Shown in pieces: positions 660 through 31,162 of a stretch of DNA of 31,162 bases (position 1 is its first letter; every line of letters begins with the position of its first letter). Origin of the DNA: a virus (taxonomy: Duplodnaviria > Heunggongvirae > Uroviricota > Caudoviricetes); the IMG/VR virus record IMGVR_UViG_2582580984_000003, one strand, 5' to 3'. Below the pieces are notes generated by a model. The model did not search any database. It was not told where the DNA came from and saw only the letters and a program-made list of their open reading frames with translations. A program made the translations under genes and the position numbers.

Positions 660-680
660 AATTACCTCTAGCTTTTCTGC

Positions 681-708: not shown

Positions 709-726
709 GTATCTGGGTTATAAAAT

Positions 727-4206: not shown

Positions 4207-4227
4207 TCGTCATGCTCCATAAACGAT

Positions 4228-4248
4228 AAAACCGCCCGGAGGCGGTTT
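4228..4248 (-). other. GC-rich hairpin between I and J (AAACCGCC-TCCG-GGCGGTTT)
   Basis: Perfect 7-8 bp inverted repeat followed by a T-rich tract immediately upstream of the J RBS; possible attenuator or mRNA stability element. Confidence 0.3.
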
Positions 4249-4266
4249 CACATAAAACATTTTGCA

Positions 4267-5555: not shown

Positions 5556-5560
5556 GGGAT

Positions 5561-6259
5561 TTACTGCGAAAGTTTGTTAATGGAAAGGAAGCCGCCAAAG
5601 TTGCCGACGTTATTGCGAAACTTACAGCCATTCAGGCATTTGCTGCATTTATCCTTCGTGATATCGGACGTCGGCTGATCATATTCATCCGCGACAGCCG
5701 GACCGTGATAACCGCACTCATCACCGCGATAGGTCCAGGTGCAGGTATTAGCCAGCATGATGCGCCCCGGAAAAACGGCACCATCCGTTTCCGTCGGTGT
5801 GGACAGTACAAAGGAGGCACTCACCGCACTCAGTTCGCTGCACTGCTCGATGCGCCAGCGGCTGATCACCTCCTGCTCCGGATCGGCGTCGCTGTTTCCG
5901 TTGACGAAGTTCACCGCATCCAGAAAACGGGCGTAAACCTTACGCCTGACCACCGTTCCGCCGACCAGACTCTGCAGGTCTTCCGCCATCCCGGTGACCA
6001 TGCCGTGCAGGTTAGAGACCGTCAGTGTCGGACGGGCAGCACTGCCCTTACCGTTCAGTTCAAATCCCGTCCCCTGAATGGGGTATGCCTGATACTGCCG
6101 CCCCTGCCAGGTGACCGGCTCACCTTTTTCGTTCTGCTCATTACAGAAAAAATAACGTTCACCACCGACCTCTGTCAGATCGATTTCCCAGAGCACCACC
6201 TGGGCTGACTGAGTGAGGCGTGTCGTCTCATGATGTGTTTCCTGTGGAATATCCTGCAT
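5561..6259 (-). CDS. L: Minor tail protein L
   Basis: 232-aa ORF with ATG start; sequence and position between M and K match lambda gpL; C-terminal Cys cluster (CSKCLNGCKF). Confidence 0.9.
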   Translation of the reverse strand: MQDIPQETHHETTRLTQSAQVVLWEIDLTEVGGERYFFCNEQNEKGEPVTWQGRQYQAYPIQGTGFELNGKGSAARPTLTVSNLHGMVTGMAEDLQSLVGGTVVRRKVYARFLDAVNFVNGNSDADPEQEVISRWRIEQCSELSAVSASFVLSTPTETDGAVFPGRIMLANTCTWTYRGDECGYHGPAVADEYDQPTSDITKDKCSKCLNGCKFRNNVGNFGGFLSINKLSQ

Positions 6260-6268
6260 CAGGGCCTC

Positions 6269-6598
6269 CTATGCCACGACCTGTTCAAAATCTGCCGTTA
6301 TGGTTACCCACAGCGCCCCCACGCTTGCCGACCATTTACGACAAACCACCCTGATCGGCTTCCAGTCATAAGGTGGCGTCCACTGAAATGCGCGGACGCC
6401 ACCGTGCCGTTCCAGAAAGGCTTTCAAAGATGGGTGTTCACATTTACGAACACGTATCGTCACGCTGTAAGTCGACAACTGGTTATTCAGTCCCGCCGCA
6501 CGACGCTGTTCATAACCATCGCCCAGCTTCACTGTCACCACTTTCGGCTCTGATACCACATTCATATCCGGGCGCACTTTCCAGTGAAACGTCTCCAT
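6269..6598 (-). CDS. M: Minor tail protein M
   Basis: 109-aa ORF; ATG overlaps the H stop (TAATG); lambda gpM-like sequence and size. Confidence 0.9.
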   Translation of the reverse strand: METFHWKVRPDMNVVSEPKVVTVKLGDGYEQRRAAGLNNQLSTYSVTIRVRKCEHPSLKAFLERHGGVRAFQWTPPYDWKPIRVVCRKWSASVGALWVTITADFEQVVA

Positions 6599-9500: not shown

Positions 9501-9663
9501 GGGCGGCCTGAGTCTGACGCTCCATAAAACGCTGCATACGGGCAGAAGACCGTTCTGCATCGCTGGCTGCACCATTCAGAAGGTTTTTGATACGGGGAAT
9601 TTCATTTTTAAACTCTGCCGCATCAATCCCCAAATCAATGACCAGGTTAGCTATCTGGTCCAT
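6598..9663 (-). CDS. H: Tail tape measure protein H
   Basis: ORF-track ORF is 1031 aa from a TTG; trimmed to ATG at 9663..9661, preceded by GGAGGTG (1021 aa). Coiled-coil Q/E/R/A-rich core; C-terminus NNDGTNGQIGPAALKVVYDLGKK..RDGG matches the lambda gpH C-terminal motif. Confidence 0.88.
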   Translation of the reverse strand: MDQIANLVIDLGIDAAEFKNEIPRIKNLLNGAASDAERSSARMQRFMERQTQAARQTTQAASSAATAASVHAQTVEKNAQAHERMAREVEKTRQRMEALSQKIREEQAQAMALAEAQDKAAAAFYRQIDSVKQASAGLQELQRIQQQIRQARNSGGIGQQDYLALISEVTAKTRVLTQAEEEATRQKVAFIRQLKEQATRQNLSSSELLRARAAQLGVSSAAEVYIRKMEQAGKATHSLGLKSAAARQEIGVLIGELARGNLGALRGSGITLANRAGWIDTLMSPKGMMLGGVIGGIAAAVYGLGKAWYDGQKEGEEFNRQLSLTGHYAGVTAGQLWTLSRAISGNGITQHAAVGALAQVVGSGAFRGNDISMVARAAAQMERSVGQSVSDTISQFKRLKDDPVNAAKALDNELHFLTATQLEQIRVLGEQGRSSDAARIAMSALAEETGRRTADIDNNLNALGSTLKYLSDLWSRFWDAAMNIGREDSLDAQIATLQEKVSRAKRLPWTASSSQVEYDQQRLNDLQEKKRQKDLQDAKEQAERNYQEQQKRRNAENAALNRMNETEAARHQREIARINAMQYADQAVRDAAIQRENERYEKALASGKKKTRETRNDEATRLLLQYSQQQAQVEGQIAAARQSAGIATDRMTEAHKQLLALQQRISDLDGKKLTADEKSVLARKDELIQALTLLDVKQQELQKQTALNDLKKKTIQLTSQLAEEERAQRQQHDQDIATVGMGDQQRQRYQVQLSLRQKYQQQLEQLRRDSEQKGTYNTDDYRKAEQALTESLNRQLNENRRYWQQLEIAQGNWKNGVLRAFQDFTVDADNTAGTAEQVFSSAFSNMGNGLATFVTTGKLNFKSFTSSVLSDMAKILAQATMMKSIKGIGSVLGFDLSSLSLNANGGIYQSADLSRYSGTVVNRPTFFAFAKGAGVMGEAGPEAILPLRRGADGKLGVVADIGGSGMAMFAPQYNIEINNDGTNGQIGPAALKVVYDLGKKAAADFMQQQARDGGRLSGAYR

Positions 9664-9964
9664 AACGCACACCTCCGGAAATACCTTCCCCAAGATGCAT
9701 CAGTTCTTCGTCCGTTCGCTCCGGTATCCCGTTCTCTTCCGGTAAAAGGCTGAAATCAGCCACCGCAGCATCACTGCTGCCGGACACCATTCTCACGATC
9801 AATGCCTTCAGCGAGGCAAACTGCGCATCCATCCACACATCACTGAAGCTCTGCATCCGGAAATAATCGCCCCACTCACCAAGCTCAGTGGCCGACATTT
9901 CCGACAGCATCCGCCGCCAGTCTGCCCGCCGGAACTCCCGGGCAAGCCGCATGACAAACTGCAT
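9647..9964 (-). CDS. T: T segment of tail assembly chaperone G-T (expressed by -1 frameshift from G)
   Basis: Open frame in the -1 frame relative to G, overlapping the G 3' end; slippery-like heptamer G GAA AAG (forward 9979..9985) lies just before the G stop; position between G and H as in lambda. Confidence 0.75.
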   Translation of the reverse strand: MQFVMRLAREFRRADWRRMLSEMSATELGEWGDYFRMQSFSDVWMDAQFASLKALIVRMVSGSSDAAVADFSLLPEENGIPERTDEELMHLGEGISGGVRYGPDS

Positions 9965-9972
9965 TTCCCGCG

Positions 9973-10362
9973 TCAGGACTTTTCCGGCGTCAGCACCTCA
10001 TGCTCCAAATCCCCGGCATTATCAATGGCCCCCATACCGCTCAGCGACAGAACCATCTCCGCCCCCGCACCCAGGGCATCATACGACCATGTTGTAATAA
10101 CGGATGCGTAAAGCGTCTCAACATCCTGAGACTGTTCCGCATTCCACAGTGAGCGGGAAACCAGCCAGGCATTGATATCCATCCCCATCCGCAGAAAAGC
10201 AATCTGTCGTTCAGCCTCCGGCAGTTCTCCCTCCCCGGCATCAAACTTTGCCGTTCGCTGCTGAACAAACGTCAGATATTCAATTCTCTGCAGCCCGGAC
10301 AGCTCACTGAGCACCACGGACTGTTTTTCATAATTAAACGTGTCCTGTTTCAGAAACATCAT
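9973..10362 (-). CDS. G: Tail assembly chaperone G
   Basis: ORF-track start (10401) lies inside a terminator-like hairpin; trimmed to ATGATG at 10362/10359 preceded by GGTGGAG. N-terminus MMFLKQDTF resembles lambda gpG MFLKTESF. Confidence 0.8.
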   Translation of the reverse strand: MMFLKQDTFNYEKQSVVLSELSGLQRIEYLTFVQQRTAKFDAGEGELPEAERQIAFLRMGMDINAWLVSRSLWNAEQSQDVETLYASVITTWSYDALGAGAEMVLSLSGMGAIDNAGDLEHEVLTPEKS

Positions 10363-10375
10363 GTTCTCCACCTGT

Positions 10376-10399
10376 AAAAAAGCCCCGAATAACCGGGGC
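10376..10399 (-). terminator. Intrinsic terminator-like hairpin between V and G
   Basis: Minus-strand GCCCCG-GTTATT-CGGGGC followed by TTTTTT, 20 nt after the V stop codon and just before the G RBS. Confidence 0.45.
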
Positions 10400-10419
10400 A
10401 AATGATGAGTATCGTCCTG

Positions 10420-11163
10420 TTAACCTGCTGCGCTGACAGTCACCGCAGCCACAGCCACAAAATTCCCGTCAGCGGTCATGCCCACAATGCTGACACTGCC
10501 CTGCTTCACGCCTTTCACCGTGGCCACAAGCCCGTTCAGGGTCACCGTGGCAGTCTGTGGATCTGTCGAATGCACACTGATCGCTTTGTCACTGGCTCCG
10601 TCAGGTTTTACTGTAAAGGTCAGCGTGGTGGTTGCTCCCACTTTTACACTGGCAGATGCCGGTGCCACCGTCAGCCCGGTAACGCTCACTGTTTCAGTGC
10701 CTTCCTCTGCCAGATACGGACGCCCCACACCGCTGATTTTCACTGTGCGGGTCATCACGTCTTTTGAGGCAATGGTTTTACCCAGTGAACTCAGCCAGCC
10801 ACGGAAAACATCAACAGTACCGTTGGGATATTTGATACGAAACGCGCAGACTTCACCGGAGTCGAACAACTGAACCAGTTTTTTCTGCCCGCTGTCACCC
10901 GGACGCCAGGCCAGCGTCGCCGAAGTATCACCAACGGATTTCTGCCCCTGGGTTGTCGTTTTCCAGTCTGCATCTTCATCATCGAGATAAGTGTCATCTT
11001 CTGCATCAGCGGTCATTTCGCCAGGTTGCAGATCCTTCACCATCGCAAGACGCAGCCAGTCAGTGTCCGACAAAGGATTCGCAAACGCATCGCCGTTGCC
11101 GGTATACATCCAGAACGTCGTCCCCGCACCTTTCGTCTTTGCCAGTGGATTTGGTGTGGTCAT
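10420..11163 (-). CDS. V: Major tail tube protein V with C-terminal Ig-like domain
   Basis: ORF-track N-terminal extension rejected; ATG at 11163..11161 preceded by AAGGAGGTG. N-terminus MTTPNPLAKTKGAGTTFWMYTGNGD..ANPLSD resembles lambda gpV; C-terminal ~90 aa is Thr/Val-rich Ig-like. Confidence 0.9.
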   Translation of the reverse strand: MTTPNPLAKTKGAGTTFWMYTGNGDAFANPLSDTDWLRLAMVKDLQPGEMTADAEDDTYLDDEDADWKTTTQGQKSVGDTSATLAWRPGDSGQKKLVQLFDSGEVCAFRIKYPNGTVDVFRGWLSSLGKTIASKDVMTRTVKISGVGRPYLAEEGTETVSVTGLTVAPASASVKVGATTTLTFTVKPDGASDKAISVHSTDPQTATVTLNGLVATVKGVKQGSVSIVGMTADGNFVAVAAVTVSAAG

Positions 11164-11173
11164 TACCACCTCC

Positions 11174-11575
11174 TTAATTCGTGTACGTGATCTGGTACGT
11201 GATTTCCGCCATCGCCCAGGTGGCCATCTCATTATCACGTTGATAGTTAAAACCGAGTGGGATCAGGGTGTCGATGAGTCCGGAAAGTGCCGGTATATCA
11301 TTCAGGGCAGGAAAAATGGTGCTCTCCATCCACATATCCAGCTCTGAATCCGGTGCCTGTGCCCGGATGAAGACGGCAATATGCAGAACAGCCTGCCAGT
11401 CATCTTCATCCGTCATTTTTCCGGTGTACTGAGCATCACTCAGCCACACCGCCACGGCAGGCAGTTCCTGCGCATCAATAAATGCCGGAAGCCCGTCAAA
11501 AAACGTGGCGCTGTCTCCACACTGTTCCCGAAGGCGTGCCAGTACGACCTGGCGGATTTGTGTATGTCGGTTCAT
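11174..11575 (-). CDS. U: Tail terminator protein U
   Basis: ATG at 11575 overlaps the Z stop (ATGA); motifs ATFFDG and PAVAVWL match lambda gpU (ATFFDG, PAVAVYL). Confidence 0.85.
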   Translation of the reverse strand: MNRHTQIRQVVLARLREQCGDSATFFDGLPAFIDAQELPAVAVWLSDAQYTGKMTDEDDWQAVLHIAVFIRAQAPDSELDMWMESTIFPALNDIPALSGLIDTLIPLGFNYQRDNEMATWAMAEITYQITYTN

Positions 11576-12162
11576 CGGGTCAGCCATAATCTCAGTTGTT
11601 GTTTCAGTGCATACCCCAGCTGTTTCGGCATTTCCGCAGCAATGATGCGGTCGCGGGCATCTTCAAATGCCTGTGTCAGCGGTCCGGACAGCGGGATTTT
11701 CACTACCTCCACAGGAAGACGATTTTTTCTTGGCCTGCCCTGATGGTCATGCCCTGTTGCAAAACGCGCTTCAGGAAGACGCCTAAGAACATGCCAGCGG
11801 CCATTCGCCAGTTGCTGAACAAATGCCCCCCGGAAAAAGTATTTTCCCACTCTCAGTCCTTCACCAGCACGCCGCCGTGTTGTGTTCAGTTTGATGGCGG
11901 GCAGATTGCCCCGGTTAACGCGGATCCTGGCCGTCATTTTTCCTGACGGACTGGCTTTAAACACCCGGACACGCTGACGTACCAGTTTCAGGGGGATCCC
12001 TTTCACCTGGTTATCTCCCGCAACGGTATTCCCGGCAACCTGCCGGGTGGCAACCGAGACCGCTTTCTGTGCCACACGGTTTATCGCCCATGCGCTGGCC
12101 TGTGGCACCATACGGGTATCAAGGCTGTTCAGATTGCGGATGGCATTCTCAAGCCCCTTCAT
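11572..12162 (-). CDS. Z: Tail completion protein Z
   Basis: 196-aa ORF, ATG start; N-terminus MKGLENAIRNLNSLDTR and motif VAGDNQVKGIPL..RVNRGNLPAIKL match lambda gpZ. Confidence 0.85.
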   Translation of the reverse strand: MKGLENAIRNLNSLDTRMVPQASAWAINRVAQKAVSVATRQVAGNTVAGDNQVKGIPLKLVRQRVRVFKASPSGKMTARIRVNRGNLPAIKLNTTRRRAGEGLRVGKYFFRGAFVQQLANGRWHVLRRLPEARFATGHDHQGRPRKNRLPVEVVKIPLSGPLTQAFEDARDRIIAAEMPKQLGYALKQQLRLWLTR

Positions 12163-12173
12163 CCCACACCTCT

Positions 12174-12449
12174 TTACTCAATAAAGATCATTGGCTTACC
12201 GTTAAAGCGTTCATGCCGTGTGACCGTCCATTGTTGTCCGTCATAAACAACGCGATCCCCGCGCCGTGGGCGGTATCCCGAAGAAAACACCACCAGAGAG
12301 ACCGCAGGTCCGGACAGAGCATTCAGCTCTGCCAGTGTTTCTCCCGGGATCACAGTCATATCGACATCATTAACCGAGGCTGTCTTTCCCATCTTTCTGA
12401 CCGTGATCGCATCCATACGCGCTGCCAGCCGGGAAAAGGGATCAGACAT
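12174..12449 (-). CDS. Head-tail joining protein (FII-like by position)
   Basis: 91-aa ORF with ATG start between the head genes and Z; the upstream gene's stop overlaps its start region. Assignment is by synteny only. Confidence 0.5.
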   Translation of the reverse strand: MSDPFSRLAARMDAITVRKMGKTASVNDVDMTVIPGETLAELNALSGPAVSLVVFSSGYRPRRGDRVVYDGQQWTVTRHERFNGKPMIFIE

Positions 12450-12765
12450 TGAGTTTTACCGGCACTTCTTCTGCACTGGTTCCGGCATCTGCCCAGACAA
12501 CCCCGACCAGCGGATCAGAGCCACTGTTAGTCAGCTGAACTTTTCCGGACTTCAGATAAACCTTCTTACCCGTTTTCATATCATCCGTTTTCAGCTTAGG
12601 CAGCATAAACACACCTTCGGTCATGCCGTCGCCTGTTTCACCCTGTGGAATATCGGTCAGCGCCACCGCAAAAACATCACCCACCTGCACCAGATCTCCG
12701 CTGCTGATGGCTGCACTGGCAACAATCGCCACCGTTTTTCCTTCTTCTACAAAATTCTTTGCCAT
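12442..12765 (-). CDS. Small head-associated protein (DUF2190-like; possible decoration or cement protein)
   Basis: ORF trimmed to ATG at 12765..12763 preceded by GGAGACAGTT; 107 aa, Gly/Val-rich, immediately downstream of the capsid gene. Confidence 0.5.
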   Translation of the reverse strand: MAKNFVEEGKTVAIVASAAISSGDLVQVGDVFAVALTDIPQGETGDGMTEGVFMLPKLKTDDMKTGKKVYLKSGKVQLTNSGSDPLVGVVWADAGTSAEEVPVKLNV

Positions 12766-12850
12766 AACTGTCTCCGCACTGCCCCGTTCAGGGGCTGATT
12801 TCAGGTACAAAAAAAGCCCTTACGGGCATCAGAGTTGTTGTCTGCGACGT

Positions 12851-14809
12851 TTACGCCGTACATTTCACCAGACCGCGGTGATCAACTGGCGCGACACCGG
12901 CGTCAATACGCACTTTCGTTGTCACGCCATCCACACTGAAGCCCTCCATCTGATCAATATATGGCGTATCCACACCGTTGAGATAAGCCACTTCAATCGT
13001 ATCGGAGCCTTTTGACGCAGCCAGGTAGAAGGTGGTCTGGCTGTTATCATCAAGACGAGGCTCTGCAATAACGGTCGCAAAATCTTTCACCGGGTTAATA
13101 ATACCGGCGTTAATGTCAGCCCCCTTGACACTTGAGGAGCGAATGACCTGGTTAGCAACAGACTCCATCGCCGTCGGTACCAGTACGAACGCAGGACGAA
13201 TATTCAGATGACGCTCCCCCTCTTTCTGAACGCGCATCAACTGGCGGGCTTTATCCAGCGATGCCACGTCCATTGCAGCGCTCTCCAGTACGTTTGCATG
13301 TTTCGCTTTATCGAACAGACTTACATTATCTGTGGAGATTTTCGGGTTAGACGTCAGAATGGCATAAACCAGATCGGCAATAGTGGATTTCGCCGCACGG
13401 CCCAGTTTCATCGGGACATCGGTCAGCATATTCAGATCATCATTGATAATGGCCTGACGGGTGATACTGAACAGCTCGCCATAGGTCGCCAGTGCAATAG
13501 TGGCCTGTTTATCTCCGGTGGTGACGTATTTATATTCCGCCCCTTCACGCACCTGACGCAGAGCACTGAAGCCCCCCATACCCACACGATGGGCAATTTT
13601 AAAATCAGACAACTGACCTTTCCGCGTCCACTGTTCATAGGTTTCAGGAGCATCTTCCCAGCCCTGCAGAATGGCTTTGTTCGCAACATCCAGCAGAATA
13701 TTACCGAAGTCAGACGTACTGTGTGTGAACGCCGCACCGACCATCTGCATCGGGTTATAACTGGAAACACCAATACCACGTTCAGTCAGTGACATACGGG
13801 CATATTCACGCAGGGTCATCCCGTTGTAGACATTATCACGTTCAGTTTTTTCAAACCCGGCGCGCGCCATCAGCGCCTGGCGGATCCCGTCCCCCACAAA
13901 ATTACCGTTACCGGCATAAATATGAGCCGGGGTATTTTTATTGGATGGCGTGGACTCGCGCCCCATCTCGTTCAACAGCTTTTCGCGGGCCTGCTCCAGC
14001 GAACATTCAGGATCGGCAAGACACTGAGCCTGCAACGACTGATAACGCCCGCCAAACATGGCAAACAGATCATTAATACCGTTTACACGCGCTTTTTGCT
14101 CTGCCAGGACCTGCGCACGGATGCTGTTTTCATCCACCACGGGTGCTGCTGCCTGCACTGGCGTCCGGGAGGCTGCAGGTCCATCATCCTGTACGCGTGG
14201 AGCACTGTTGCGTGGCGGAGTAATCATATTTCGAATGGATTCCGGCATCTTTTTAAATTCCTCTGTACGTTTTGACTGAATACATGCCATTGCCTTAACG
14301 GCTGGTGTCACCTGATCAGCAAATCCCTGTGCCAGACATTCGGCACCGGACATCCAGGTCTCATCCGCCAGCATGGCAGCAATTTCATCGGTGGTTTTCC
14401 CGGTTTTCTGTGCATAAGCGGGTAACAGAACCGCCTCAACTTTATCGAGCAGGTCGGCATAGGTGCGCATGTCCTCCGCATCACCGCCCGTAAAGCCAAA
14501 TGGTTTATGAATCATCATGAAGGAGTTTTCCGGCATAATGACCGGGTTTCCCACCATCGCAATGACCGACGCCATTGACGCCGCCACACCGTCGACATAA
14601 ACGGTAATGGACGCACCATGTGTTTTCAGTGCATTAAAAATGGCGATGCCTTCAAAGACATCGCCACCCGGTGAATTAATATGGAGATTAATGTGGGTGA
14701 TATCGCCCAGTGCATTCAGATCACTGATAAACTGCTTCGCCGTAACACCCCAGAAACCAATCTCGTCATAAATATAAATATCCGCGTCACTCTGGTGACC
14801 TGCCTGCAT
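12851..14809 (-). CDS. Prohead protease (ClpP/S14-like) fused to HK97-fold major capsid protein
   Basis: Single 652-codon frame from ATG at 14809 (14 nt after the portal stop). N-terminal domain carries ClpP-like active-site motifs (GVAASMAS, MMIHKP); C-terminal ~300 aa looks like a major capsid protein. No stop separates the two parts. Confidence 0.8.
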   Translation of the reverse strand: MQAGHQSDADIYIYDEIGFWGVTAKQFISDLNALGDITHINLHINSPGGDVFEGIAIFNALKTHGASITVYVDGVAASMASVIAMVGNPVIMPENSFMMIHKPFGFTGGDAEDMRTYADLLDKVEAVLLPAYAQKTGKTTDEIAAMLADETWMSGAECLAQGFADQVTPAVKAMACIQSKRTEEFKKMPESIRNMITPPRNSAPRVQDDGPAASRTPVQAAAPVVDENSIRAQVLAEQKARVNGINDLFAMFGGRYQSLQAQCLADPECSLEQAREKLLNEMGRESTPSNKNTPAHIYAGNGNFVGDGIRQALMARAGFEKTERDNVYNGMTLREYARMSLTERGIGVSSYNPMQMVGAAFTHSTSDFGNILLDVANKAILQGWEDAPETYEQWTRKGQLSDFKIAHRVGMGGFSALRQVREGAEYKYVTTGDKQATIALATYGELFSITRQAIINDDLNMLTDVPMKLGRAAKSTIADLVYAILTSNPKISTDNVSLFDKAKHANVLESAAMDVASLDKARQLMRVQKEGERHLNIRPAFVLVPTAMESVANQVIRSSSVKGADINAGIINPVKDFATVIAEPRLDDNSQTTFYLAASKGSDTIEVAYLNGVDTPYIDQMEGFSVDGVTTKVRIDAGVAPVDHRGLVKCTA

Positions 14810-14822
14810 CCTGAACCAAGAA

Positions 14823-16331
14823 TTATTCTTCGGACTGGTCGTCGGTGTGCTGCGGCTCCTGTCGTTTCGTTGCGGCACTGCTGCCTCCTTTATCACTGGC
14901 CGGATCGGTATCAAATACCAGATCCAGCTTGCGGTTTTCATCAATTTCGGCCTTGCGCCGACGTTTGACATCATCTGGATTACGACCACCTGCACGTACC
15001 CAGTCTGATTCTGTCGCCGCTCCACCACGAATCTGAATTTTCCAGGCCTCAGCCTCCTTAACAGGGTCAATCCACGGCATCACCGGTCCGGAATACACCG
15101 CGGTATACAGTGAAGATCGGTCCAGATCGCGGGGTAGCCTGATAACACCGGATACCACAGCCTGTTTCAGCCAGGCACGGTACATCGGGCGGGTGACGGC
15201 ACCAATAAACCAGTCCTGCAGGATCAGGTAGCCATCAGTAGATTCAACCAGCTCCTGACGCTGGGCGCTGTAAGTGCCGTTATAGTTGCGCGCTGTACTG
15301 GAAAAACTCAGACGACTGCCCGCAGCCACGGCACGCAACTGACCATTACGAAAAGTTTCAAGGTTAGGATTGGGGCGATCCGACTTCACCATTCCGATTT
15401 CTTCGCCGGGTTTCAGATCGTCGTAAATAATGCCTGGCTGAATGGTAAGCTCGCGTTCATTCTCCTTGCTGTCATTACCATCCGTTTCATAGCTCTGTCC
15501 GTCGCCTTTCCGGATGTACATCCCCAGAGCAGCGGCGATCCTTGCTGCAGTCAGCTCAGAATCTTCATACTCTTTCAGAGCACTGAGGCGGATCAGCACA
15601 CCGGACAACAAAGACGTCCCGCGCATCTGGTGCAGACGGCGAACAAATTTAAGATGCAGCATTCGCTCTGCATCCACTTCTTTGGTTTCCATCTGCCGCC
15701 CGGATACGGGACGGCTTTTATACACCAGATATTTTTCGGGACGCCCCCAGTCATCAACAAACACGCCCTGATTCAGCCTGTTGCTCTCATCACTGGTCAT
15801 GGGAATAAAGTCCGGCTCGAGCGCCTCCAGCCAGAAATGAACACCGGCAGAAGGCGTCAGGCTGTTTATGCGCCCGGAAACCATCTGGGCAAACACCTCA
15901 CCATCGCGCAGCCAGGTACGCAGCATCAGACGTTCCAGCATCGGACGGGTAAACTGCCCGGTGACCTCCGGACTGACAGACCATTCACTCCATCGGGTAC
16001 GTATCTCCGCTGCCAGATCACGGGCAATGGCCCCATTGCGTAATACCGGATGTGGCTCGACAATAATCCCGTTTTTCCCCACCACCCGTTCTTCCAGCTT
16101 GTCAAATACACCAATGACCAGATCGTGGTTGTTATCAAGGTAACGAGCCTGCTCACGTAACGACACGGCCCCGTACTGGCTTAACTGGTCGGCAGTTCGG
16201 TTCTCCCGTCGGGCTTTGTGTGTCCGCGTCGTTTTTACGGCCTCATAAGCCTGGATCACCGCACGGGAACGCAGCCTTGCCGCTTTCCATCCTGGTGAAA
16301 AAACGCCAATCACATCATCAAGAATTGCCAT
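14823..16331 (-). CDS. B: Portal protein
   Basis: ORF trimmed to ATG at 16331..16329, overlapping the W stop (TGATG); 502 aa with acidic C-terminus; position between W and the protease. Confidence 0.85.
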   Translation of the reverse strand: MAILDDVIGVFSPGWKAARLRSRAVIQAYEAVKTTRTHKARRENRTADQLSQYGAVSLREQARYLDNNHDLVIGVFDKLEERVVGKNGIIVEPHPVLRNGAIARDLAAEIRTRWSEWSVSPEVTGQFTRPMLERLMLRTWLRDGEVFAQMVSGRINSLTPSAGVHFWLEALEPDFIPMTSDESNRLNQGVFVDDWGRPEKYLVYKSRPVSGRQMETKEVDAERMLHLKFVRRLHQMRGTSLLSGVLIRLSALKEYEDSELTAARIAAALGMYIRKGDGQSYETDGNDSKENERELTIQPGIIYDDLKPGEEIGMVKSDRPNPNLETFRNGQLRAVAAGSRLSFSSTARNYNGTYSAQRQELVESTDGYLILQDWFIGAVTRPMYRAWLKQAVVSGVIRLPRDLDRSSLYTAVYSGPVMPWIDPVKEAEAWKIQIRGGAATESDWVRAGGRNPDDVKRRRKAEIDENRKLDLVFDTDPASDKGGSSAATKRQEPQHTDDQSEE

Positions 16332-16543
16332 CAGAACCTCGCCAGCCGGTACCCGGGATGCCCCCGTCGTCGTGTAATCAGAGCCGCAAGGCGGCGCTCC
16401 CACTCCTGCCGCCCCTGCCGGATCTCAGATAAGTTTTCCATGGTCATCTGCTGACCATTAAAAGTGACGGATTTTCCGTCCAGCACCGCCATTTCAGCTT
16501 CCGTATAACGCTGAATCATGGCTTCAATATCATTCTGATTCAT
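16331..16543 (-). CDS. W: Head-tail joining protein W-like
   Basis: ATG at 16543 overlaps the terminase stop (ATGA) with GGAGG 6 nt upstream; C-terminus ..TRRRGHPGYRLARF resembles lambda gpW ..RRRGPAGFYV. Confidence 0.7.
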   Translation of the reverse strand: MNQNDIEAMIQRYTEAEMAVLDGKSVTFNGQQMTMENLSEIRQGRQEWERRLAALITRRRGHPGYRLARF

Positions 16544-18642
16544 AACCATCCTCCGGAAGTCAGCCAGGGGTTAACATCGTCAGTTACTGTTTTCTTCCGT
16601 TTTTGTTTTTTAACAGGCGTGGGTACCGGTTCCGGTGAGGGTGACGGTTCGGTACTGTCCGGGACACACTCCAGCCAGGTTTCCCGGCTCGCCCACTCCG
16701 GTGCATCCGGCCAGCGGATCTTTTCGTATCCATGCAGAATGACCAGAGCCTCGGCATACACCATCAGGTCAAAAGCTTCGTTGGCACCGCGACCCGGCTT
16801 ACTCCATTTCCCGTCACTGCTCCGCTCTTCATACGTCAGTTCGTCGTAAAACCAGCTCCCCAGCCAGTCAGGGAAATGCACATAGCCGGGACCTGGCGAG
16901 TCACGCCATAACGCGTTATTCACCCGGTCTTTCAGGGCATCCGTCTGAAGAAGCCAGAGCGGCACATCACCTGCGGCCTGCGCCCGTCGGCCCGTTCGTC
17001 CGGTGTTATCAGGGAATGTACGGGTGATCAGTTTTGCTCGCCGGATGCTGTCGCCCTTAAACAGGTAAATACGTTTACCAAGGCCATCACGACGGCAACG
17101 ACGCCAGAATTTATAGGCATTATCAGTGACCCCGTCTTCACCGCCGGAGTCCACCGCCATTGCCATCAGTCGCATTTGTTGAGAAGGGTCGGAGGCCAGC
17201 GGCCAGCTTTTATGAAAAACATCCGTCAGCAGGACATCCCAGTCTTCCGGATAGCTGGCCGGATCAATTCGCTGGCTCTCCCCGTCGCTGTCACCGCGCA
17301 ATGACTGCGTGATGTTGTAACGATCAATAATCCAGCGTTCGCCACGGCTGCCATAGCCCGTTACCTGAACCACAAAACGGCGATGACGTCCCGCCTGCAC
17401 ATCCACTGTCGCCACAAGGAAATTAACGCCATCCGGCACACTGCGGGAAGGAACTGGCTCTGCCCGCTGCTCAAGCAATTCACTTTTTCGTTGCTCCATG
17501 CTGGCGCGGGGAAGATAAGGTAATCCCCAGTCGGTATTGATAACCGTCTTGAGTGTCTCTTCACTTCCGGTTGTCTCGTATTCCTGTTCTGCAGTAAGCA
17601 GTTTGTAAACGAGTTGCGAGAGTGTCTGATAAGCAGCTGCCGGACCCTCCATCCAGAATGACGCAATACGTGAACGCCGGGGATCACCATAACGACTGCC
17701 ATCTGCATTGATGGATTCACCATCCCGTAACCAGACCCCACGTCCGTTCAGCTCGCGTTTTTGTTCAGGCAAAATCCGTCCTGAACAGGAAGGACACTGA
17801 ATATAAGCCGCCTCACTTGCCAGCACAGGATCGGCAATATCACGGAAACCAGCAACCACATCGCCGCAGGGCTGAAAATACTCACCACAGTGTGGACAGG
17901 GCCAGTACCAGCGACGGCGATCGCCACGGTTATAGAGCGACAGGATCCCCGTGGTTGGTGGAGCCTCATGCGGTGAAGTCCGTCGCCATTTCACATCCTT
18001 CACATCCCTGCCGGGGGAACTCTCCACCAGCGTCATACCACTGGACATAAATGTGGTGGTACGTTTTGAGGCAAGAGAGAAGGCATCCCCCTCACCATCA
18101 ATATCTTCCGGAAAACGGTCATAATCCGTCAGCGCCACGCATTTATAATCTGATGAAGACATGATATTGACTGACGGCCAGCCGATTTTCAGGTAGTTGC
18201 CAGCAAGGAATGTTCTGTCATAAACGTTGTTGTCATTTTTGTTCGGACTCAGGCGACTGACCACTTCCGGGCTGACGCGAAACGTTCTGGCGAGTCGTTT
18301 TTTGGAGTGTTCGCGGGCTTTTTCCTCCGTCATCTGAATGATCAGCATATCAGCAGGATCGCAAATCACGTTGTAAATCACCCAGCCGTCAATCAGGCCG
18401 ATAGTCTTGCCGGTTCGTGCCGGGCCAACAAATATCACTGCGTCGTATTCACGCGAGGCCAGGCAGTTCATAGGCTCAATAACATACGGTGCCACCAGCG
18501 GATCCCATGGGACTGAGTTCCCTGCCCCCATGGGCACCCGCATATACTGAGCAACGGCATCAGCAACCCGCATTCGTCTCGGTGCGCGAAGGATATAACC
18601 TGAATCGGTTCGTGCTGCCTTTGCGGTTTCCTGATTCAGCAT
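16540..18642 (-). CDS. A: Terminase large subunit (GpA family)
   Basis: 700-aa ORF; Walker A motif GPARTGKT; ATG overlaps the Nu1 stop (TAATG). Confidence 0.9.
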   Translation of the reverse strand: MLNQETAKAARTDSGYILRAPRRMRVADAVAQYMRVPMGAGNSVPWDPLVAPYVIEPMNCLASREYDAVIFVGPARTGKTIGLIDGWVIYNVICDPADMLIIQMTEEKAREHSKKRLARTFRVSPEVVSRLSPNKNDNNVYDRTFLAGNYLKIGWPSVNIMSSSDYKCVALTDYDRFPEDIDGEGDAFSLASKRTTTFMSSGMTLVESSPGRDVKDVKWRRTSPHEAPPTTGILSLYNRGDRRRWYWPCPHCGEYFQPCGDVVAGFRDIADPVLASEAAYIQCPSCSGRILPEQKRELNGRGVWLRDGESINADGSRYGDPRRSRIASFWMEGPAAAYQTLSQLVYKLLTAEQEYETTGSEETLKTVINTDWGLPYLPRASMEQRKSELLEQRAEPVPSRSVPDGVNFLVATVDVQAGRHRRFVVQVTGYGSRGERWIIDRYNITQSLRGDSDGESQRIDPASYPEDWDVLLTDVFHKSWPLASDPSQQMRLMAMAVDSGGEDGVTDNAYKFWRRCRRDGLGKRIYLFKGDSIRRAKLITRTFPDNTGRTGRRAQAAGDVPLWLLQTDALKDRVNNALWRDSPGPGYVHFPDWLGSWFYDELTYEERSSDGKWSKPGRGANEAFDLMVYAEALVILHGYEKIRWPDAPEWASRETWLECVPDSTEPSPSPEPVPTPVKKQKRKKTVTDDVNPWLTSGGWL

Positions 18643-19136
18643 TACTCCTCCTGCTGTAATTCCTCCTCATCATCCGCACCTGGTTCAGTCACCCGCAGGG
18701 CTATCTGATCGCGCAGATCATCAATAATGGACTGAACACGGCTCACAGCGGCAGGCTGCAGACCGCAGTCACGTTCAAGAATATCCGGTAATGTCTCCAG
18801 CACCTGCACGACCGCTTTTGCCCAGATGGCAAACTCCCGTCTGACATCACTGGCCGGAATGAGTTGTGCCGTTTCCTGTTCGAACTTAAGACGCTCACGT
18901 TCAGACTGATACCAGGCTTTGCGCTCATGTGCGTCCATTTCGCCTTCTGCAACCGGCGGTGGTAATGCCAGAAATGCCGACACAATATCAACCACCCGAT
19001 AAAGCTTGAGGTTGCTTTCATGCCCCCCTGCAACGGGTAGATTTTGCAGCCTTGCCGCAGCAGTCTGGCGATGTACACCTGACAGTGCCGCCAATTGACT
19101 GATATTCAGCGTCAGATTTTTTAACTCTCGATCCAT
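18642..19136 (-). CDS. nu1: Terminase small subunit (Nu1-like)
   Basis: 164-aa ORF, ATG at 19136 with GGAG RBS; N-terminal helix-turn-helix-like segment LNISQLAALSGVHRQTAAARLQN; acidic C-terminus; ~170 bp downstream of the cos-like sequence. Confidence 0.85.
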   Translation of the reverse strand: MDRELKNLTLNISQLAALSGVHRQTAAARLQNLPVAGGHESNLKLYRVVDIVSAFLALPPPVAEGEMDAHERKAWYQSERERLKFEQETAQLIPASDVRREFAIWAKAVVQVLETLPDILERDCGLQPAAVSRVQSIIDDLRDQIALRVTEPGADDEEELQQEE

Positions 19137-19324: not shown

Positions 19325-19688
19325 TGGCAGGGACCCCCACTGGGAGGACCCGACAGCCTGACAACCGTGACGAGCATCTGAAACAGAGCGTTACATAATG
19401 GCATGGGTATAATTCAGAAGGACATCACAGCATGCCCACACAAATTAGTGTGAGTGTCCTGTTTCTTACTACGCGCAGGACTGACGAGCATGAGGGGAAA
19501 ATACGCGAACCGAAATGCCTTATCTTCAGAAATGCAGCCGGCATCCGAACTGGACGATATTGTAAATTCACCTAAATACGAGGCATTGCTGTAGTTGAAT
19601 TGCAGTACTGTATTAGCCTTACAGTGACAGAATACGATATTGACTCTGTCACTTGTGAAATGGTCAGAATGGTTAGCAGTTATGGTGA

Positions 19689-19895
19689 TCAGTCAACCAC
19701 CAGGGAATAATCCTTCGTATTCTTATCGTGCTTTACTAACGCGGCCTCAATTGCCCTGAATGCTTCCAGAGATACTTGATGTTCTATACATGCAATTACA
19801 ACATCCGGGTAACCCATCGAAATGGTGCTATTAAGCATAGTTTTTACACGAACCTGCTCCTGGGAGGGGGCATCAGTGTATTGATCTTTATGCAT
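19689..19895 (-). CDS. Hypothetical 68-aa protein
   Basis: ATG at 19895 with GGAG 8 nt upstream; last gene before cos; no recognisable family. Confidence 0.5.
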
Positions 19896-20100
19896 TTTGT
19901 CGCTCCATTCGTTTGCTCTTCACTTGCGGCTAAAAATATAACGTCAAATCACTCAGCATGAAAGAGTGAAAGTTTCAGCGCGTTTCCCTTACATAATCTG
20001 TCGTTTGTATTCTCTTCAGGCATACCGGAAAGACTAGGTATTGTCACACAACCAATACCATCGACAATCGAGATTTATATCTATTCGGTAATGTTTAAAT

Positions 20101-20125
20101 ATAACAAAACCCCGTAAAAACGAGG
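20101..20125 (-). terminator. Possible intrinsic terminator downstream of gnsB
   Basis: Minus-strand CCTCG-TTTTTA-CGGGG stem (one G-U pair) followed by TTTTGTTAT. Confidence 0.3.
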
Positions 20126-20190
20126 TTTATGGGTAATTTGTATTGTTGAATAGCATCTGATGAGAAATTGATGCTAATACTATAAACATG

Positions 20191-20364
20191 CTAGATTAAA
20201 TCAATCTTGATATCATAGCTTTCAAGACCAGTCATTTTTTCCCGTGCAGTAAACTGGATACTGGTAACTTCTTTCCCGGTCTTTTTCTTAAGCTCAATGA
20301 TTTTTTTTGTTATATATTCAGAAATATCTGCTTCTGTTTTTGTTTTTAACTCTTCAATGTTCAT
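20191..20364 (-). CDS. gnsB: GnsA/GnsB-family small protein
   Basis: ORF trimmed to ATGATG at 20367/20364 preceded by AGAGGAA; 57-58 aa (MMNIEELKTKTEADISEYITKK..FTAREKMTGLESYDIKIDLI), matching the GnsB family as recalled. Confidence 0.8.
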   Translation of the reverse strand: MNIEELKTKTEADISEYITKKIIELKKKTGKEVTSIQFTAREKMTGLESYDIKIDLI

Positions 20365-20536
20365 CATTTCCTCTTTTAGTCTGTTATGACTGTCCTGGTA
20401 CACAGTAGTGTCAATTATATGGAGCAAACGTATAAAAGATAAGATGAAACATCGCAATAATCAACATACGACGGTCTAAATTTCACACAAACAGATAAAG
20501 ATGATTATCATTTATTATCAATGCATTAGAATCAAA

Positions 20537-20806
20537 TCAATTCAAGAGTCTCATTGCTGCTTCCAGAATTTCTTCTGAAGTTACATGTCGATCCGCTGCT
20601 ACATAAATGACTTTATGATCTCCGGTCAGAGATGGAAACCCTGCAGCCATTACAGTGAGGTGTGTTGTTTCGCCATTTGGATATTCACGCATGATGGTGT
20701 TAACTCCGGTCATCACTGGCACTACCATTGCTGGTTCAGAGTTAAAAAAAACTATTATTTTTTTCATAATGTTACCGTAATATGTGAGTATCCATCGACT
20801 AGACAC
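20537..20806 (-). CDS. Hypothetical protein
   Basis: ORF-track start is GTG at 20806; an internal ATG at 20767 would give 76 aa (MKKIIVFFNSEP..); weak RBS; no family assignment. Confidence 0.35.
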   Translation of the reverse strand: MSSRWILTYYGNIMKKIIVFFNSEPAMVVPVMTGVNTIMREYPNGETTHLTVMAAGFPSLTGDHKVIYVAADRHVTSEEILEAAMRLLN

Positions 20807-20811
20807 TAAGC

Positions 20812-20831
20812 AAAAAAGCTCCCGAAGGAGC
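20812..20831 (-). terminator. Intrinsic terminator downstream of cspI
   Basis: Minus-strand GCTCC-TTCG-GGAGC hairpin followed by TTTTTTGC. Confidence 0.5.
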
Positions 20832-21038
20832 CTTCATTTTCACTTTCTTAAATCTAACGACAGATGGCTAACATTTAAGTATTGTGAAATATTATCAAAT
20901 GTAATCATCATTGATTTACAAAAGATACATTTTGCCCCGAAAGGATTTCTGTCAGAAACATCAAAAGATGATGTTCTATACTGAGAACCATGGCAACACG
21001 GGCATCTAAAGTGAATATGGTTTGTAATATTTTCTACC

Positions 21039-21251
21039 TCAAAGTGCCACTACATGAACAGCTGCAGGGCCTTTAGGTCCGTTCTCAATACCAAATTCGA
21101 CTTCCTGATTCTCAGTTAACGTTTTGAAATCGTTGCTCTGAATAGCTGAGAAATGCACAAACACATCTTTGCTACCATCTTTCGGCGTGATGAAACCAAA
21201 ACCTTTTTCAGGGTTAAACCATTTCACTAAACCAGTCATTTTGTTAGACAT
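21039..21251 (-). CDS. cspI: Cold-shock protein (CspA family, CspI-like)
   Basis: 70 aa from ATG at 21251; RNP1 KGFGFI and RNP2 VFVHF motifs; ~360 bp AT-rich upstream leader typical of csp genes. Confidence 0.9.
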
Positions 21252-21614
21252 CATTATTACCTTTTGAAGAAGTTAGCCCTTGGGCAGAATGGTCCGAAAA
21301 AAAATATCAGAGAGAAAAACCAACAAGGAAATCTCAAGAGGTACAAATAATAAAATTATAACAATGACTGCTTCAGATAATTTTGTAACAAACCAGAACA
21401 CCATTAACGCATGATTAACCAACCATAGCAAGGATTACTTTTGTAAAGAAAAACACACGAATGAAACAATAGCTTTATTTATTAATAAAACGTGTCATTC
21501 TGTCTAATGACCTTTTATCTTACCCTTAAGATTTCAAGGATTTTGACTCATGGAAGAGTCCTTTTTATTTAAATTTCACATTCAGCGCTAAAAATAATCC
21601 GATTTAATATTAAT

Positions 21615-24455: not shown

Positions 24456-24929
24456 ACAGCGAATCAGATCAAATAAAACGCACATTTGTTAACATTTACA
24501 CAAAGTCTGCGTGGGATATTCTGAAAGAATATCCATAATGTGGAGAGAATCTATTGAAGTGCATGGTGCCGGGTGCCTCCCGGTGAATTCAGTACCAGCA
24601 CCTGAATCCGCGATTATCCCATATACCTACTCGCTGATTGCCCCTCCGCACAGGGGGATTCACCATGCCAGTTTCTTTTAACAAACTCCCCGCAAACCAG
24701 AGAACAGTCAACCGCCTGAATTGTGAAGTATTTAAAAATTTCTCCCGCTAACTGATACCCGGCTAACAGTCTGGCGTTTTCTTTTTCAGCAACGGGAAAG
24801 CAACAACCACCACACCCGCCACCAGCACACCGTCAGCCAGCACTGACATTATCCGGCTGCTGCAATGCCATTCACAAAAACAGTAAGCAATCACTTTTTA
24901 CCGTAACAGGTGATAATCCAGATATGTAT

Positions 24930-25393: not shown

Positions 25394-25470
25394 TGGCGCG
25401 CTGTACTGGATTCGAACCAGTGACCGATTGCTTAGAAGGCAATTGCTCTGTCCGGCTGAGCTAACAACGC
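25394..25470 (-). tRNA. tRNA-Arg (anticodon UCU)
   Basis: 77-nt cloverleaf read from the minus strand: acceptor GCGTTGT/ACAGCGC, D-stem GCTC/GAGC, anticodon stem ATTGC/GCAAT with loop CTTCTAA, T-arm ACTGG-TTCGAAT-CCAGT, 3' CCA. Confidence 0.9.
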
Positions 25471-25570
25471 TGAATACCGATAATGGACCGCCATCGGGGA
25501 CCCGCCCCCGCACCAACAACCCTGTTATCGTGTCGTCTGCTCTTCCTGATAAGCTAATGGCGGTTTGTGA

Positions 25571-25646
25571 TGGTGGCCCTTGCTGGATTTGAACCAGCGA
25601 CCTGGCGATTATGAGTCGCTCGCTCTCACCACTGAGCTAAAGGGCC
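25571..25646 (-). tRNA. tRNA with anticodon CAU (ileX/ileZ-like tRNA-Ile2; Met not excluded)
   Basis: 76-nt cloverleaf: acceptor GGCCCTT/AAGGGCC, anticodon loop CTCATAA, T-arm GCTGG-TTCAAAT-CCAGC, 3' CCA; very similar to E. coli ileX as recalled. Confidence 0.85.
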
Positions 25647-28858: not shown

Positions 28859-29014
28859 TTACTCCTCAGGTTCGTAAGCTGTGAAGACAGCGACCTCCGT
28901 CTGCCCGGTTCGGATTCGTACCTCGCAGAGGTCTTTCCTCGTTACCAGTGCCGTCACTATGACGGTTAAACAGATGACGATCAGGGCGATTAACATCGCC
29001 TTTTGCTGCTTCAT
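28859..29014 (-). CDS. hokD: Hok/Gef-family membrane toxin (HokD/RelF-like)
   Basis: 51 aa from ATG at 29014 with AAGGAG RBS: MKQQKAMLIALIVICLTVIVTALVTRKDLCEVRIRTGQTEVAVFTAYEPEE. The ORF-track in-frame 5' extension is not used. A GGCGAGGGA..TCCCTCGCC hairpin sits just 3' of the stop. Confidence 0.9.
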   Translation of the reverse strand: MKQQKAMLIALIVICLTVIVTALVTRKDLCEVRIRTGQTEVAVFTAYEPEE

Positions 29015-30085
29015 AGCCTGCTTCTCCTTGCCTTTCGGCACGTAAGAGGCTAACCTACATGTGTCTAGCATGAAATTGGCCTCAGATTAATGTTAAGCGT
29101 CTTGCAGGACGCGTAATGTTAACTGGGGCTTTTCTCTATCTGCCGTTGGTGTTCATGCCCGAGGCAGATAGCCTCAAGCACCCGCAGCCATTCTACTTAA
29201 CTACCGTTACCTCGCCAATGTGAAATCAGTCAGAAAGGCGATCCATAAGAACAATAGCAAGACAATAAATCGCCATTACAGCCGTAATAGCCAGCGCACA
29301 TTTGAGAACCAGCACCACAACCTCCTGTATTGGACGTACACCAGTCCTGATGAATATGAGGCTGTCTCGTCAGTGATTCAATACAACTATTGGGTATAGT
29401 TTCTCTGATTTTTTCTGTGGAAATGGGGCTCAACCACTAGTCATTTAATACGCAAAGTCCGACACAAGCTAACCTTCTAGTCCGCTTTGAGCGATGAGCG
29501 GACATCGACTTTAAAAAACACTAGCGTAAACAGGAAGGCAGTTATGATCCAGAATGAATACTCACTACCTCTTTGACTAAAATGATGATAAGTGCTCATT
29601 TGATGATAATTAACATGTTTTTTAATAATTAAAGCTAACATAATAATTTAACGAATATTCTTTGCTTTCTGAATAATAAACCTAGAGCAAACTAAATGAC
29701 ATCACCAGGACTTAACACCATAGGGTTGGTTTCGAATATTCTTGGCGTGATATTAATTTTTCTTTTGATTACCACAATCCTCTCATAATGAGGGAGTGTC
29801 ACTGGCATTGGAAGATAATACGCAATTGAATGATGGAACTACTGTCAAATAAAAGAACTTAAAAACAAAAAAAGAAGTATATTTACAATATCTTTCGTAT
29901 ACTTAGCGTTAGCATTAATGTTCACGGATTCGTATTGCAATTCTTATCAATTCTACCTGACTTGCAAATTTAATTGACTCGTAACATCTGCAACCCCACA
30001 TTTAACAAAAAGCAGATAGAATAATTGAAGGATATAGTCTAGCTAAGTTAAATGTGGGTGCGTTTTATTTTACATCAATATATTT

Positions 30086-30928
30086 TTAATTTACAAAACC
30101 GAAATCCAGACACTTTTTATAGCTGTTAGGGTGAAGATCTTTAAGGTCTTTTAAAAAACCTTTATCAAGTGTTAAAATCAAAGTGTCTGGCATATTTAGA
30201 GAAATAACTATTAGAAAGTCAAATATGTCATTTTTTCGTAATTTACGACCATTTTTATATGCATCCTCAACCTTGCTCATTAGAAAGCTCAACGAATTCT
30301 TAGTAAGCCCACGAGCGCCAGAAATCCCCTCCTCCATTTCTTTCAGGTAGTTATCAACTACTGATTCGTGTTTTTTTTTGCAGGCAAGGGATATTGGATT
30401 CTCCATATATTTTTTAAACTTTTTATCAAAATTATCATTTTTTATACTATCATACAGATTTTTGAGTCTGTCTTGGCTTCCGGAAATGTTAACTGTGTCA
30501 GTTTTAATCATATGATAGTTGACATGAAAAGCATGTAGGAGTCCGATAAGCATGGTTTCAAAAGCTTTCAAAGCTGATTGCTGCTCATTTCCATTAATAT
30601 ATCCATTCCGCAACTCATCTTTAAAGAAGTCTAAAATTAATTCCATATTAGATTCAAGTAGAGTCTGCACAAGACTAAGTTGACTTTGATTTTGTACATC
30701 GTTATCAAACTTGTATCCATCTTCTCTAATAACCTCAAACAAACCAGAGACAACCAGTATGAGTATGAACCTATAAAACTCAGCCTCTCTAGATATTTTT
30801 AGTGCTCTAACATTATCAATAATATCTTTTACTTCGTCTATTTTGTCTGAAAAATGCAACCTATAAAGAAATTCATTTGAGATTGGAGTATAGACTGGCC
30901 CCCTGAATCTCCAGACAACCAATATCAC
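30086..30928 (-). pseudogene. AT-rich ORF of unknown function, 5' end interrupted by IS2
   Basis: 280-codon frame with low GC; its first 13 codons (30891..30928) are encoded by the IS2 terminal sequence, so the native 5' end is displaced. No recognisable domain. Confidence 0.45.
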
Positions 30929-31162
30929 TTAAATAAGTGATAGTCTTAATACTAGTTTTTAGACTAGTCATTGGAGAGCAGATGATTGATGTCTTAGGAC
31001 CGGAGAAACGCAGACGGCGTACTACACAGGAAAAGATCGCTATTGTTCAGCAGAGTTTTGAACCGGGAATGACGGTCTCCCTTGTTGCCCGGCAACACGG
31101 TGTGGCAGCCAGCCAGTTATTTCTCTGGCGCAAGCAATACCAGGAGGGAAGTCTTACTGCTG
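30891..31162 (+). mobile_element. IS2 (IS3 family) left end, truncated by the window edge
   Basis: Sequence from TAGACTGGCCCCCTGAATCTCCAGACAACC through the insC start matches the IS2 left terminus as recalled. Confidence 0.9.
30982..31162 (+). CDS. insC: IS2 transposase OrfA (InsC), N-terminal part
   Basis: ATG at 30982; translation [60 protein letters not shown]; runs off the window end. Confidence 0.9.

Follow-up and report, generated by a model that had tools for sequence, protein, structure and literature searches.

At the right end of IMG/VR record IMGVR_UViG_2582580984_000003, a 31,162-nucleotide stretch of tailed-phage DNA that is referred to here as the window, an AT-rich open reading frame runs directly into an insertion sequence. 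This raises the question of what the gene was before the insertion and what has become of it since. The initial annotation had described a gene of unknown function at a prophage edge, interrupted by IS2, and had suggested that its intact form might be a defence gene acquired by horizontal transfer. We investigated the remnant in the window, the part of the gene that was displaced by IS2, the intact alleles in other genomes, and the prophage in which the gene resides.

A reading frame that begins inside IS2

The program-made list of open reading frames contains the minus-strand frame on which this description was built, at 30086-30928 and with a length of 280 codons. Its native part (30086-30890, minus strand) corresponds to residues 74-340 of a 340-aa protein together with the stop codon, and the chance of a stop-free run of 268 codons at the same base composition is approximately 1e-10. 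As had been claimed, the remnant is markedly AT-rich in comparison with the phage structural genes, with a GC content of 32.2% for 30086-30890 against 54.5% for window positions 1-19000, which hold the structural genes; the value for the whole window is 50.3%.

The left end of IS2, TAGACTGGCCCCCTG..., lies at 30891, and the sequence read onward from this position is TAGACTGGCCCCCTGAATCTCCAGACAACC.... The first 38 nt of IS2 (30891-30928) supply the GTG start and about 12.7 codons of the 280-codon ORF, confirming that the apparent N-terminus belongs to the insertion sequence. This false N-terminus (30890-30928, minus strand) consists of the GTG start and 13 junction codons (MILVVWRFRGPVY) that come from the left inverted repeat of IS2. 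Direct reading of the sequence upstream of this GTG revealed no visible Shine-Dalgarno motif.

IS2 and the displaced 5' part of the gene

The last 272 bp of the window (30891-31162, plus strand) are the left part of IS2, with the left inverted repeat at 30891 and the ATG of orfA (insC) at 30982. Copies with at least 99% identity to this segment are present in 1,997 records and, overall, in thousands of E. coli genomes; among the copies listed, the annotation is that of an IS3-family transposase, in one case 'IS3-like element IS2 family transposase'. A lookup of the chimeric 280-aa ORF led to scaffold KK736343.1, a 2.77-Mb scaffold of assembly GCA_000692515.1, on which IS2 carries ORFs with HTH_Tnp_1 and rve_3 domains; an exact-match scan of genome contigs for the IS2 junction gave no match. 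A scaffold gap of 832 Ns begins right after 31162, 272 bp into IS2, and the IS2 interior is unassembled. Past the gap, the right end of IS2 (...GGGGCAAATCCA) accounts for 351 bp and is followed by GAGTA and by the remainder of the gene, which reads TGACCAATG.... Since GAGTA also stands at 30886-30890, directly before the left end of IS2, the element is flanked by a perfect 5-bp target-site duplication, the right copy of which lies outside the window. The displaced 5' piece of the gene forms an 87-aa ORF that comprises residues 1-74 and 13 residues encoded by IS2. The second IS2 end, the 5-bp duplication and the missing 5' part, all of which had been expected beyond the window, were thus located on KK736343.1.

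Deletion in silico of IS2 and one copy of GAGTA produced 1,023 bp that are 100% identical to the intact gene, and the encoded protein is DS-3, the defence protein described below. IS2 was inserted at codon 74, in the orientation opposite to that of the gene. Both junctions, the perfect duplication and the exact restoration of the intact allele bear out the claim that IS2 split the gene. Judged from the sequence, they point to a simple and recent insertion without later decay, and no other change was seen in either half.

The intact gene is DS-3

Matches that cover at least 80% of window positions 29450-30890 were obtained in 72 complete E. coli genomes, and the 30 matches listed were 100% identical across the whole query. 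In the two genomes examined, the CDS extends for another 73 codons beyond the insertion point, and its product is the 340-aa hypothetical protein WP_022645725.1. The 3' fragment in the window (30086-30890, minus strand) shows 100% DNA identity to the intact alleles annotated under this accession. The ORF of the uninterrupted alleles therefore spans the site of the IS2 insertion, and distant relatives have kept the frame at full length, in line with the initial annotation.

Residue for residue, WP_022645725.1 is identical to system PIN8, which is DS-3 in Table S8 of the DefensePredictor study (DeWeirdt, Mahoney and Laub, Science 2026, PMC13092281; preprint January 2025, bioRxiv 10.1101/2025.01.08.631726), in which the source assembly is given as GCF_003892645.1. 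According to this study, DS-3 protects E. coli MG1655 against T4, RB69 and Candy, with -log10 EOP values of 3.48, 5.60 and 4.70, respectively, in the primary screen (PMC13092281). The cloned transcription unit is listed with a single CDS, that of DS-3, at 244326-245348, and the authors describe no cognate antitoxin (PMC13092281). Either of the substitutions D7A and E42A abolishes protection, and these two are the only DS-3 mutants in Table S11 (PMC13092281). This loss of defence supports a putative metal-dependent nuclease activity of the protein. The gene in the window is therefore a known and already published gene, DS-3, present as what is almost certainly an ordinary null allele. The suggestion of a defence gene proved correct, as the intact form is an experimentally validated one-gene anti-phage system, and the label of unknown function no longer applies. 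A literature search found no later papers on DS-3, and searches by the accession WP_022645725.1 and by P2-EC48, which carries a homologue described below, gave no result.

A whole-gene search detected the full-length locus in 71 of 5,426 complete E. coli genomes. One of these 71 loci (L022, NZ_CP104665.1 2817926-2818947; L numbers denote the loci compared here) contains a 1-bp deletion and is annotated as two CDS. This deletion is a second, independent inactivation of DS-3. Two independent inactivations against 71 full-length copies could mean that DS-3 is costly and is repeatedly lost.

Fold and relatives of the DS-3 protein

Searches of both the remnant and the intact protein against Pfam, PADLOC, PHROGs and NCBIfam returned nothing meaningful, and matches to TetR_C_8 and DUF1397 were discarded as noise, with E values of 0.05-0.09 that lie below the curated cut-offs. 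The E. coli 340-aa protein gave no Pfam PIN match even at E up to 10, and it matched no model of PADLOC-DB v2.0.0 (2023), a release that preceded the publication of DS-3. Among 58 relatives, the Pfam PIN family PF01850 was matched by 25 (best E 5.5e-7) and PIN_12 by 5, while PADLOC returned one marginal KwaA match (E 0.0077). A profile search of PDB sequences yielded chance matches only (E at least 0.2). With Foldseek, there was no match among the BFVD viral structures, and the matches to VapC in the PDB were weak (E >0.3) because the PIN domain is split.

An AlphaFold2 model of the 340-aa protein was built from 20 homologues and reached a pLDDT of 90.5 and a pTM of 0.85. In this model, strand-helix units at residues 3-69 and a helix at 78-86 are followed by an all-helical block from about residue 90 to 286, and the C-terminal part is formed by a helix at 293-305, a strand at 309-312 and two closing helices. 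The alpha/beta/alpha fold of PIN domains is present. The model thus presents DS-3 as a PIN nuclease with a predicted helical domain of about 200 residues inserted between the fifth and sixth helices. The catalytic domain lies in two stretches, residues 1 to about 86 (strands 1-3, with D7 and E42) and about 293-340 (with D294, D297 and D315), in agreement with the HHpred PIN domains at 1-75 and 276-327 given for DS-3 (PMC13092281). The 3' fragment at 30086-30890 holds the helical insertion domain and the C-terminal PIN half with its three aspartates. Although the direct profile searches were empty, the AlphaFold2 model and the PF01850 matches of the relatives together identified a PIN fold.

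An alignment of 58 relatives with 15-49% identity showed that D7, E42, E108, N293 and D297 are invariant, and that T8, N9, Y12, Y170, D294 and D315 are nearly invariant. The PIN acidic site is made up of D7, E42, D294/D297 and D315. N293 and two residues of the helical insert, E108 and Y170, may serve in regulation or belong to an extended active site. The family comprises 26 clusters at 90% identity among 5.8 billion clusters and 154 representatives at 50% identity among 1.84 billion, with only 5 loci among 185,579 species representatives; full-length members mostly have 330-365 aa. A tblastn search against plasmids found no match.

Auto-inhibition of DS-3 is offered by its authors as a proposal (PMC13092281). 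The helical insert would keep the nuclease off until a T-even-type infection is sensed, and the PIN site would then cleave RNA and abort the infection. Such a mechanism would require no antitoxin.

DS-3 occupies an internal slot of a lambda-like prophage

The window is a lambda-like (Qin/Rac-type) prophage read on the minus strand. Its structural genes encode the tip attachment protein J, the tape measure protein, a protease-capsid fusion, a lambda-family portal and the terminase gpA, and further genes encode a lysozyme, a DUF2514-family protein at the Rz position, the antiterminator Q and a DUF968 protein. Beyond IS2, scaffold KK736343.1 continues with DUF977, a replication gene, YdaT, Cro, a cI-like repressor, DicB, YdfD and an exonuclease, and intact prophages have the same gene order. 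The initial annotation had placed the gene at the prophage edge, but the prophage continues past IS2; the apparent edge arose because the window stops at the 832-N gap inside IS2, that is, at a contig end. DS-3 lies in the middle of the prophage, in a hypervariable cargo slot that is flanked by the replication module on one side and by hokD-rem-DUF968-rusA-Q on the other.

The DS-3 cassette is followed directly downstream by a hokD-like HOK_GEF ORF (28859-29071, minus strand), accompanied by a sok RNA (29009-29183, minus strand; Rfam RF01794, 115 bits). Together, they form a hokD/sok type I toxin-antitoxin locus at 28859-29183. Elsewhere in the prophage, an STnc100 sRNA (RF02076, 114 bits) and two prophage tRNA genes were found just downstream of Q (24507-24697 and 25394-25646, minus strand); one tRNA is an Arg tRNA (anticodon tct), and the other has a cat anticodon and is called Met by ARAGORN and Ile by RefSeq. 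A second AT-rich block at about 19500-21500 has 33-42% GC and no ORF of at least 100 aa. It includes a cspA-type thermoregulator 5' UTR (20993-21409, minus strand; RF01766), and the scaffold has cold-shock (CSD), YmcF-like and GnsAB genes in this block. Situated between the lysis genes and the terminase, the block resembles a further cargo region.

We compared the interval between DUF977 and hokD in seven E. coli prophages (L001, L020, L021 and L023-L026) and found seven different, unrelated cargos. These were DS-3; a DUF4209 protein (PADLOC candidate PDC-S39); HAD and NUDIX hydrolases; a HEPN protein; and three cargos of hypothetical proteins, namely a 484-aa protein, a 195-aa protein, and a beta-flower protein with a 471-aa protein. 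When two of the prophages with other cargo were aligned, their homology stopped at window positions 29494-29503 and resumed at position 7738 of the intact locus L001, and both breakpoints fall at similar hairpins of the form GTCCGCT...AGCGGAC. On the hokD side, the slot is bounded by the hairpin GTCCGCTTTGAGCGATGAGCGGAC (29481-29504); the partner hairpin, GTCCGCTTCTGGCACAAAGCGGAC, is located past IS2, upstream of the DS-3 start (7739-7762 in L001). These hairpins could be recombination or boundary signals. It is conceivable, though we are inclined to doubt it, that the DUF977-hokD interval of Qin/Rac-type lambdoid prophages is a dedicated exchange site for defence cassettes.

The DS-3 cassette and its homologues on other mobile elements

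The DS-3 cassette has a length of 1.68 kb and a GC content of 32%. Its 3' tail (29505-30085, minus strand) is an AT-rich segment of about 600 bp with 31% GC. The cassette recurs at about 87-88% identity in the tail-fibre region of an Enterobacter prophage and beside a P4-like satellite in Serratia, and the tail is likewise 87-88% identical to the tails of these two copies. The comparison suggests that the cassette moves as a unit between lambdoid prophages and the P4-like satellite region. The recurrence of this AT-rich cassette in Enterobacter and Serratia, together with a 62% homologue in the Z-region of P2-EC48, supports the separate horizontal acquisition that had been proposed for the gene.

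Within the tail, tblastn detected the decayed remnant of a small convergent gene at about 29696-29970 (plus strand), spread over three frames with in-frame stops. The gene encodes a protein of about 95 aa with two hydrophobic, probably membrane-spanning segments. Its ORF is intact in Enterobacter and Serratia (L005 1974-2261 and L008 1597-1887) and broken in the E. coli copies. As the E. coli allele is functional despite the decay of this ORF, the ORF is not needed for DS-3 function, and a conserved small partner gene in the 3' tail was rejected for this reason. A promoter and terminator scan of the cassette found 13 sites, which is no better than the 9.1 +/- 2.8 sites in shuffled sequence.

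The homologous loci have diverse surroundings. One copy lies directly after the Shango system SngA/B/C (L006), one near a MkoC (Mokosh)-like helicase (L015), one next to DarT-DarG (L014), and one is cargo of a Tn7-like transposon (L016). In Enterobacter hormaechei (L003), the gene is found near Dsr1, between tail-fibre genes and beside an HTH_7 gene, and a resolvase gene is nearby on a related contig (L004); the Serratia copy beside the P4-like satellite is L007. The homologue in the P2-EC48 Z-region is ORF1 of AJ512681.1 (L017, 298-1320). No neighbour gene is shared across the loci examined, and the neighbours differ in every one of them. The absence of a common neighbour fits a one-gene system, as does the decayed state of the downstream small ORF in E. 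coli. The defence genes next to several homologues support a role as defence cargo.

The deposited name of the P2-EC48 ORF1 product is 'putative lysogenic conversion protein'. Its D7 motif is cut off by a 1-nt frameshift that follows roughly codon 22, which reflects either an error in sequencing or a further inactive copy of the gene. In AJ512681.1, one annotated inverted repeat is found upstream of ORF1 and another within ORF3.

State of the allele and alternative explanations

Taken together, these results make it very likely that 30086-30890 represents the 3' three-quarters of DS-3, a split-PIN prophage defence gene, in a null allele that was split by IS2. Insertion at codon 74 has divided the gene into two ORFs, the 87-aa piece and the 280-codon chimera, of which the chimera has lost the native promoter, the ribosome-binding site, D7 and E42. 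The two PIN halves with D7 and E42 are not joined in one polypeptide here, as residues 1-74 are encoded by the separate 87-aa ORF. Because D7 and E42 are individually required, the split copy should be non-functional. The window copy thus appears to be a disrupted DS-3 allele and not a functional member of the system, and almost certainly the present allele is a recent null mutation. Of the claim that IS2 inactivated the gene, the interruption was established by finding both junctions, and the inactivation would follow from the separation of D7 and E42 from the rest of the protein.

Other explanations were weighed against this reading. The chimeric ORF might still be expressed and useful, either as a truncated regulator or decoy or, together with the 87-aa N-fragment, as a two-piece nuclease. 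Both fragments are intact ORFs with no further mutations, and the break at residue 74 falls just after PIN strand 3 and near the start of the helical insert, so that the pieces roughly correspond to structural units; breaking this close to a structural boundary, they could in principle reassemble. However, the C-fragment lacks D7 and E42, each of which is essential for defence (PMC13092281). The native promoter and start were cut off by IS2, the GTG lies in the inverted repeat and has no Shine-Dalgarno sequence, and the N-fragment carries 13 foreign residues. Moreover, the IS2 junction was absent from all 5,426 complete E. coli genomes, and the chimeric protein occurs on one contig, seen in two samples; the chimera is therefore not a maintained form. 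We regard a useful chimera as highly unlikely. An artefact of assembly or scaffolding, with the gene intact in the real genome, is exceedingly unlikely. The window does end at 832 Ns inside IS2, and the scaffold halves are 1,455 positions apart, whereas IS2 is 1,331 bp long. Nevertheless, the size of the N-run is only an estimate, and both junctions lie in assembled sequence in which DS-3 is joined directly to genuine IS2 termini. The junctions also share GAGTA, the 5-bp duplication expected for IS2, and a chimeric assembly would not create a target duplication.

It is also very unlikely that the intact gene is the toxin of a VapBC-like or addiction module, with an unrecognised small gene or RNA in the AT-rich tail, or else hok/sok, as its antitoxin and with defence as a side effect. 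The PIN fold is closest to that of VapC toxins, the 600-bp tail with its small convergent ORF accompanies the gene in Enterobacter and Serratia, and hok/sok lies immediately downstream. But in no E. coli copy is the small ORF undecayed, and this holds for the cloned allele that defends; distant homologues have no conserved neighbour, and hok/sok also adjoins unrelated cargos in the same slot. An adjacent, co-transcribed antitoxin gene, as in VapBC, was not seen at the intact loci, where the upstream gene is the DUF977 gene of the prophage, 200 bp away; at the intact E. coli loci, no gene is annotated downstream of DS-3. The single CDS of the cloned unit, for which the authors give no antitoxin, also speaks against such a module (PMC13092281). 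A DS-3 defence gene interrupted by IS2 is therefore the reading that we retain.

Significance

The intact gene is listed as a hypothetical protein in RefSeq and is invisible to Pfam, NCBIfam, PHROGs and PADLOC 2.0. In annotation, the intact gene should read DS-3, and the copy in the window should be given as a pseudogene split by IS2. The present allele is a natural knock-out without other changes, which makes it a possible control for DS-3 in its native prophage. It also illustrates that prophages lose defence cargo through IS traffic just as readily as they acquire it. The finding itself is nothing new, whereas its setting, the DUF977-hokD slot, might be: the prophage slot, the structure of the cassette and its spread across mobile elements were not found in the portion of the DS-3 paper available to us (PMC13092281) and were derived here. 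The variable slot, the mobile cassette with its tail, and the conserved E108 and Y170 constitute a natural history of DS-3 that could guide the search for its trigger.

Comparison with known systems

The closest known system is DS-3 (PIN8) itself, as residues 74-340 in the window are identical to it and the allele with IS2 excised gives the exact 340-aa protein. The published DS-3 is intact, whereas the present allele is cut by IS2 at codon 74, and D7 and E42 are parted from the rest. DS-5 (PN12), a two-protein PIN-based system from the same study, likewise depends for defence on its PIN catalytic residues, as examined with D7A and E44A (PMC13092281). In contrast to DS-3, it needs a second protein with a DUF5830 and an AcrIF4-like domain, and the authors consider the two systems not closely related (PMC13092281). 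VapC toxins (VapBC, PF01850) share the PIN fold. DS-3 differs from them in the helical insertion of about 200 residues inside the PIN domain and in the lack of an adjacent antitoxin gene, and the DS-3 protein itself remains below Pfam thresholds.

The insertion sequence has the common features of IS2 (IS3 family), namely both termini, an HTH_Tnp_1 orfA and a 5-bp duplication, and nothing about it is unusual. As for the slot, Rousset et al., cited as reference 9 in PMC13092281, reportedly described cargo hotspots of P2 phages and P4 satellites in 2022. K-12 Qin carries relBE in the position next to hokD. These sites resemble the DS-3 slot in that they, too, are places in temperate elements with interchangeable, AT-rich defence or toxin cargo. 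Unlike the P2 and P4 hotspots, the DS-3 slot is situated in a lambdoid prophage, between DUF977 and hokD, and is bounded by two similar hairpins.
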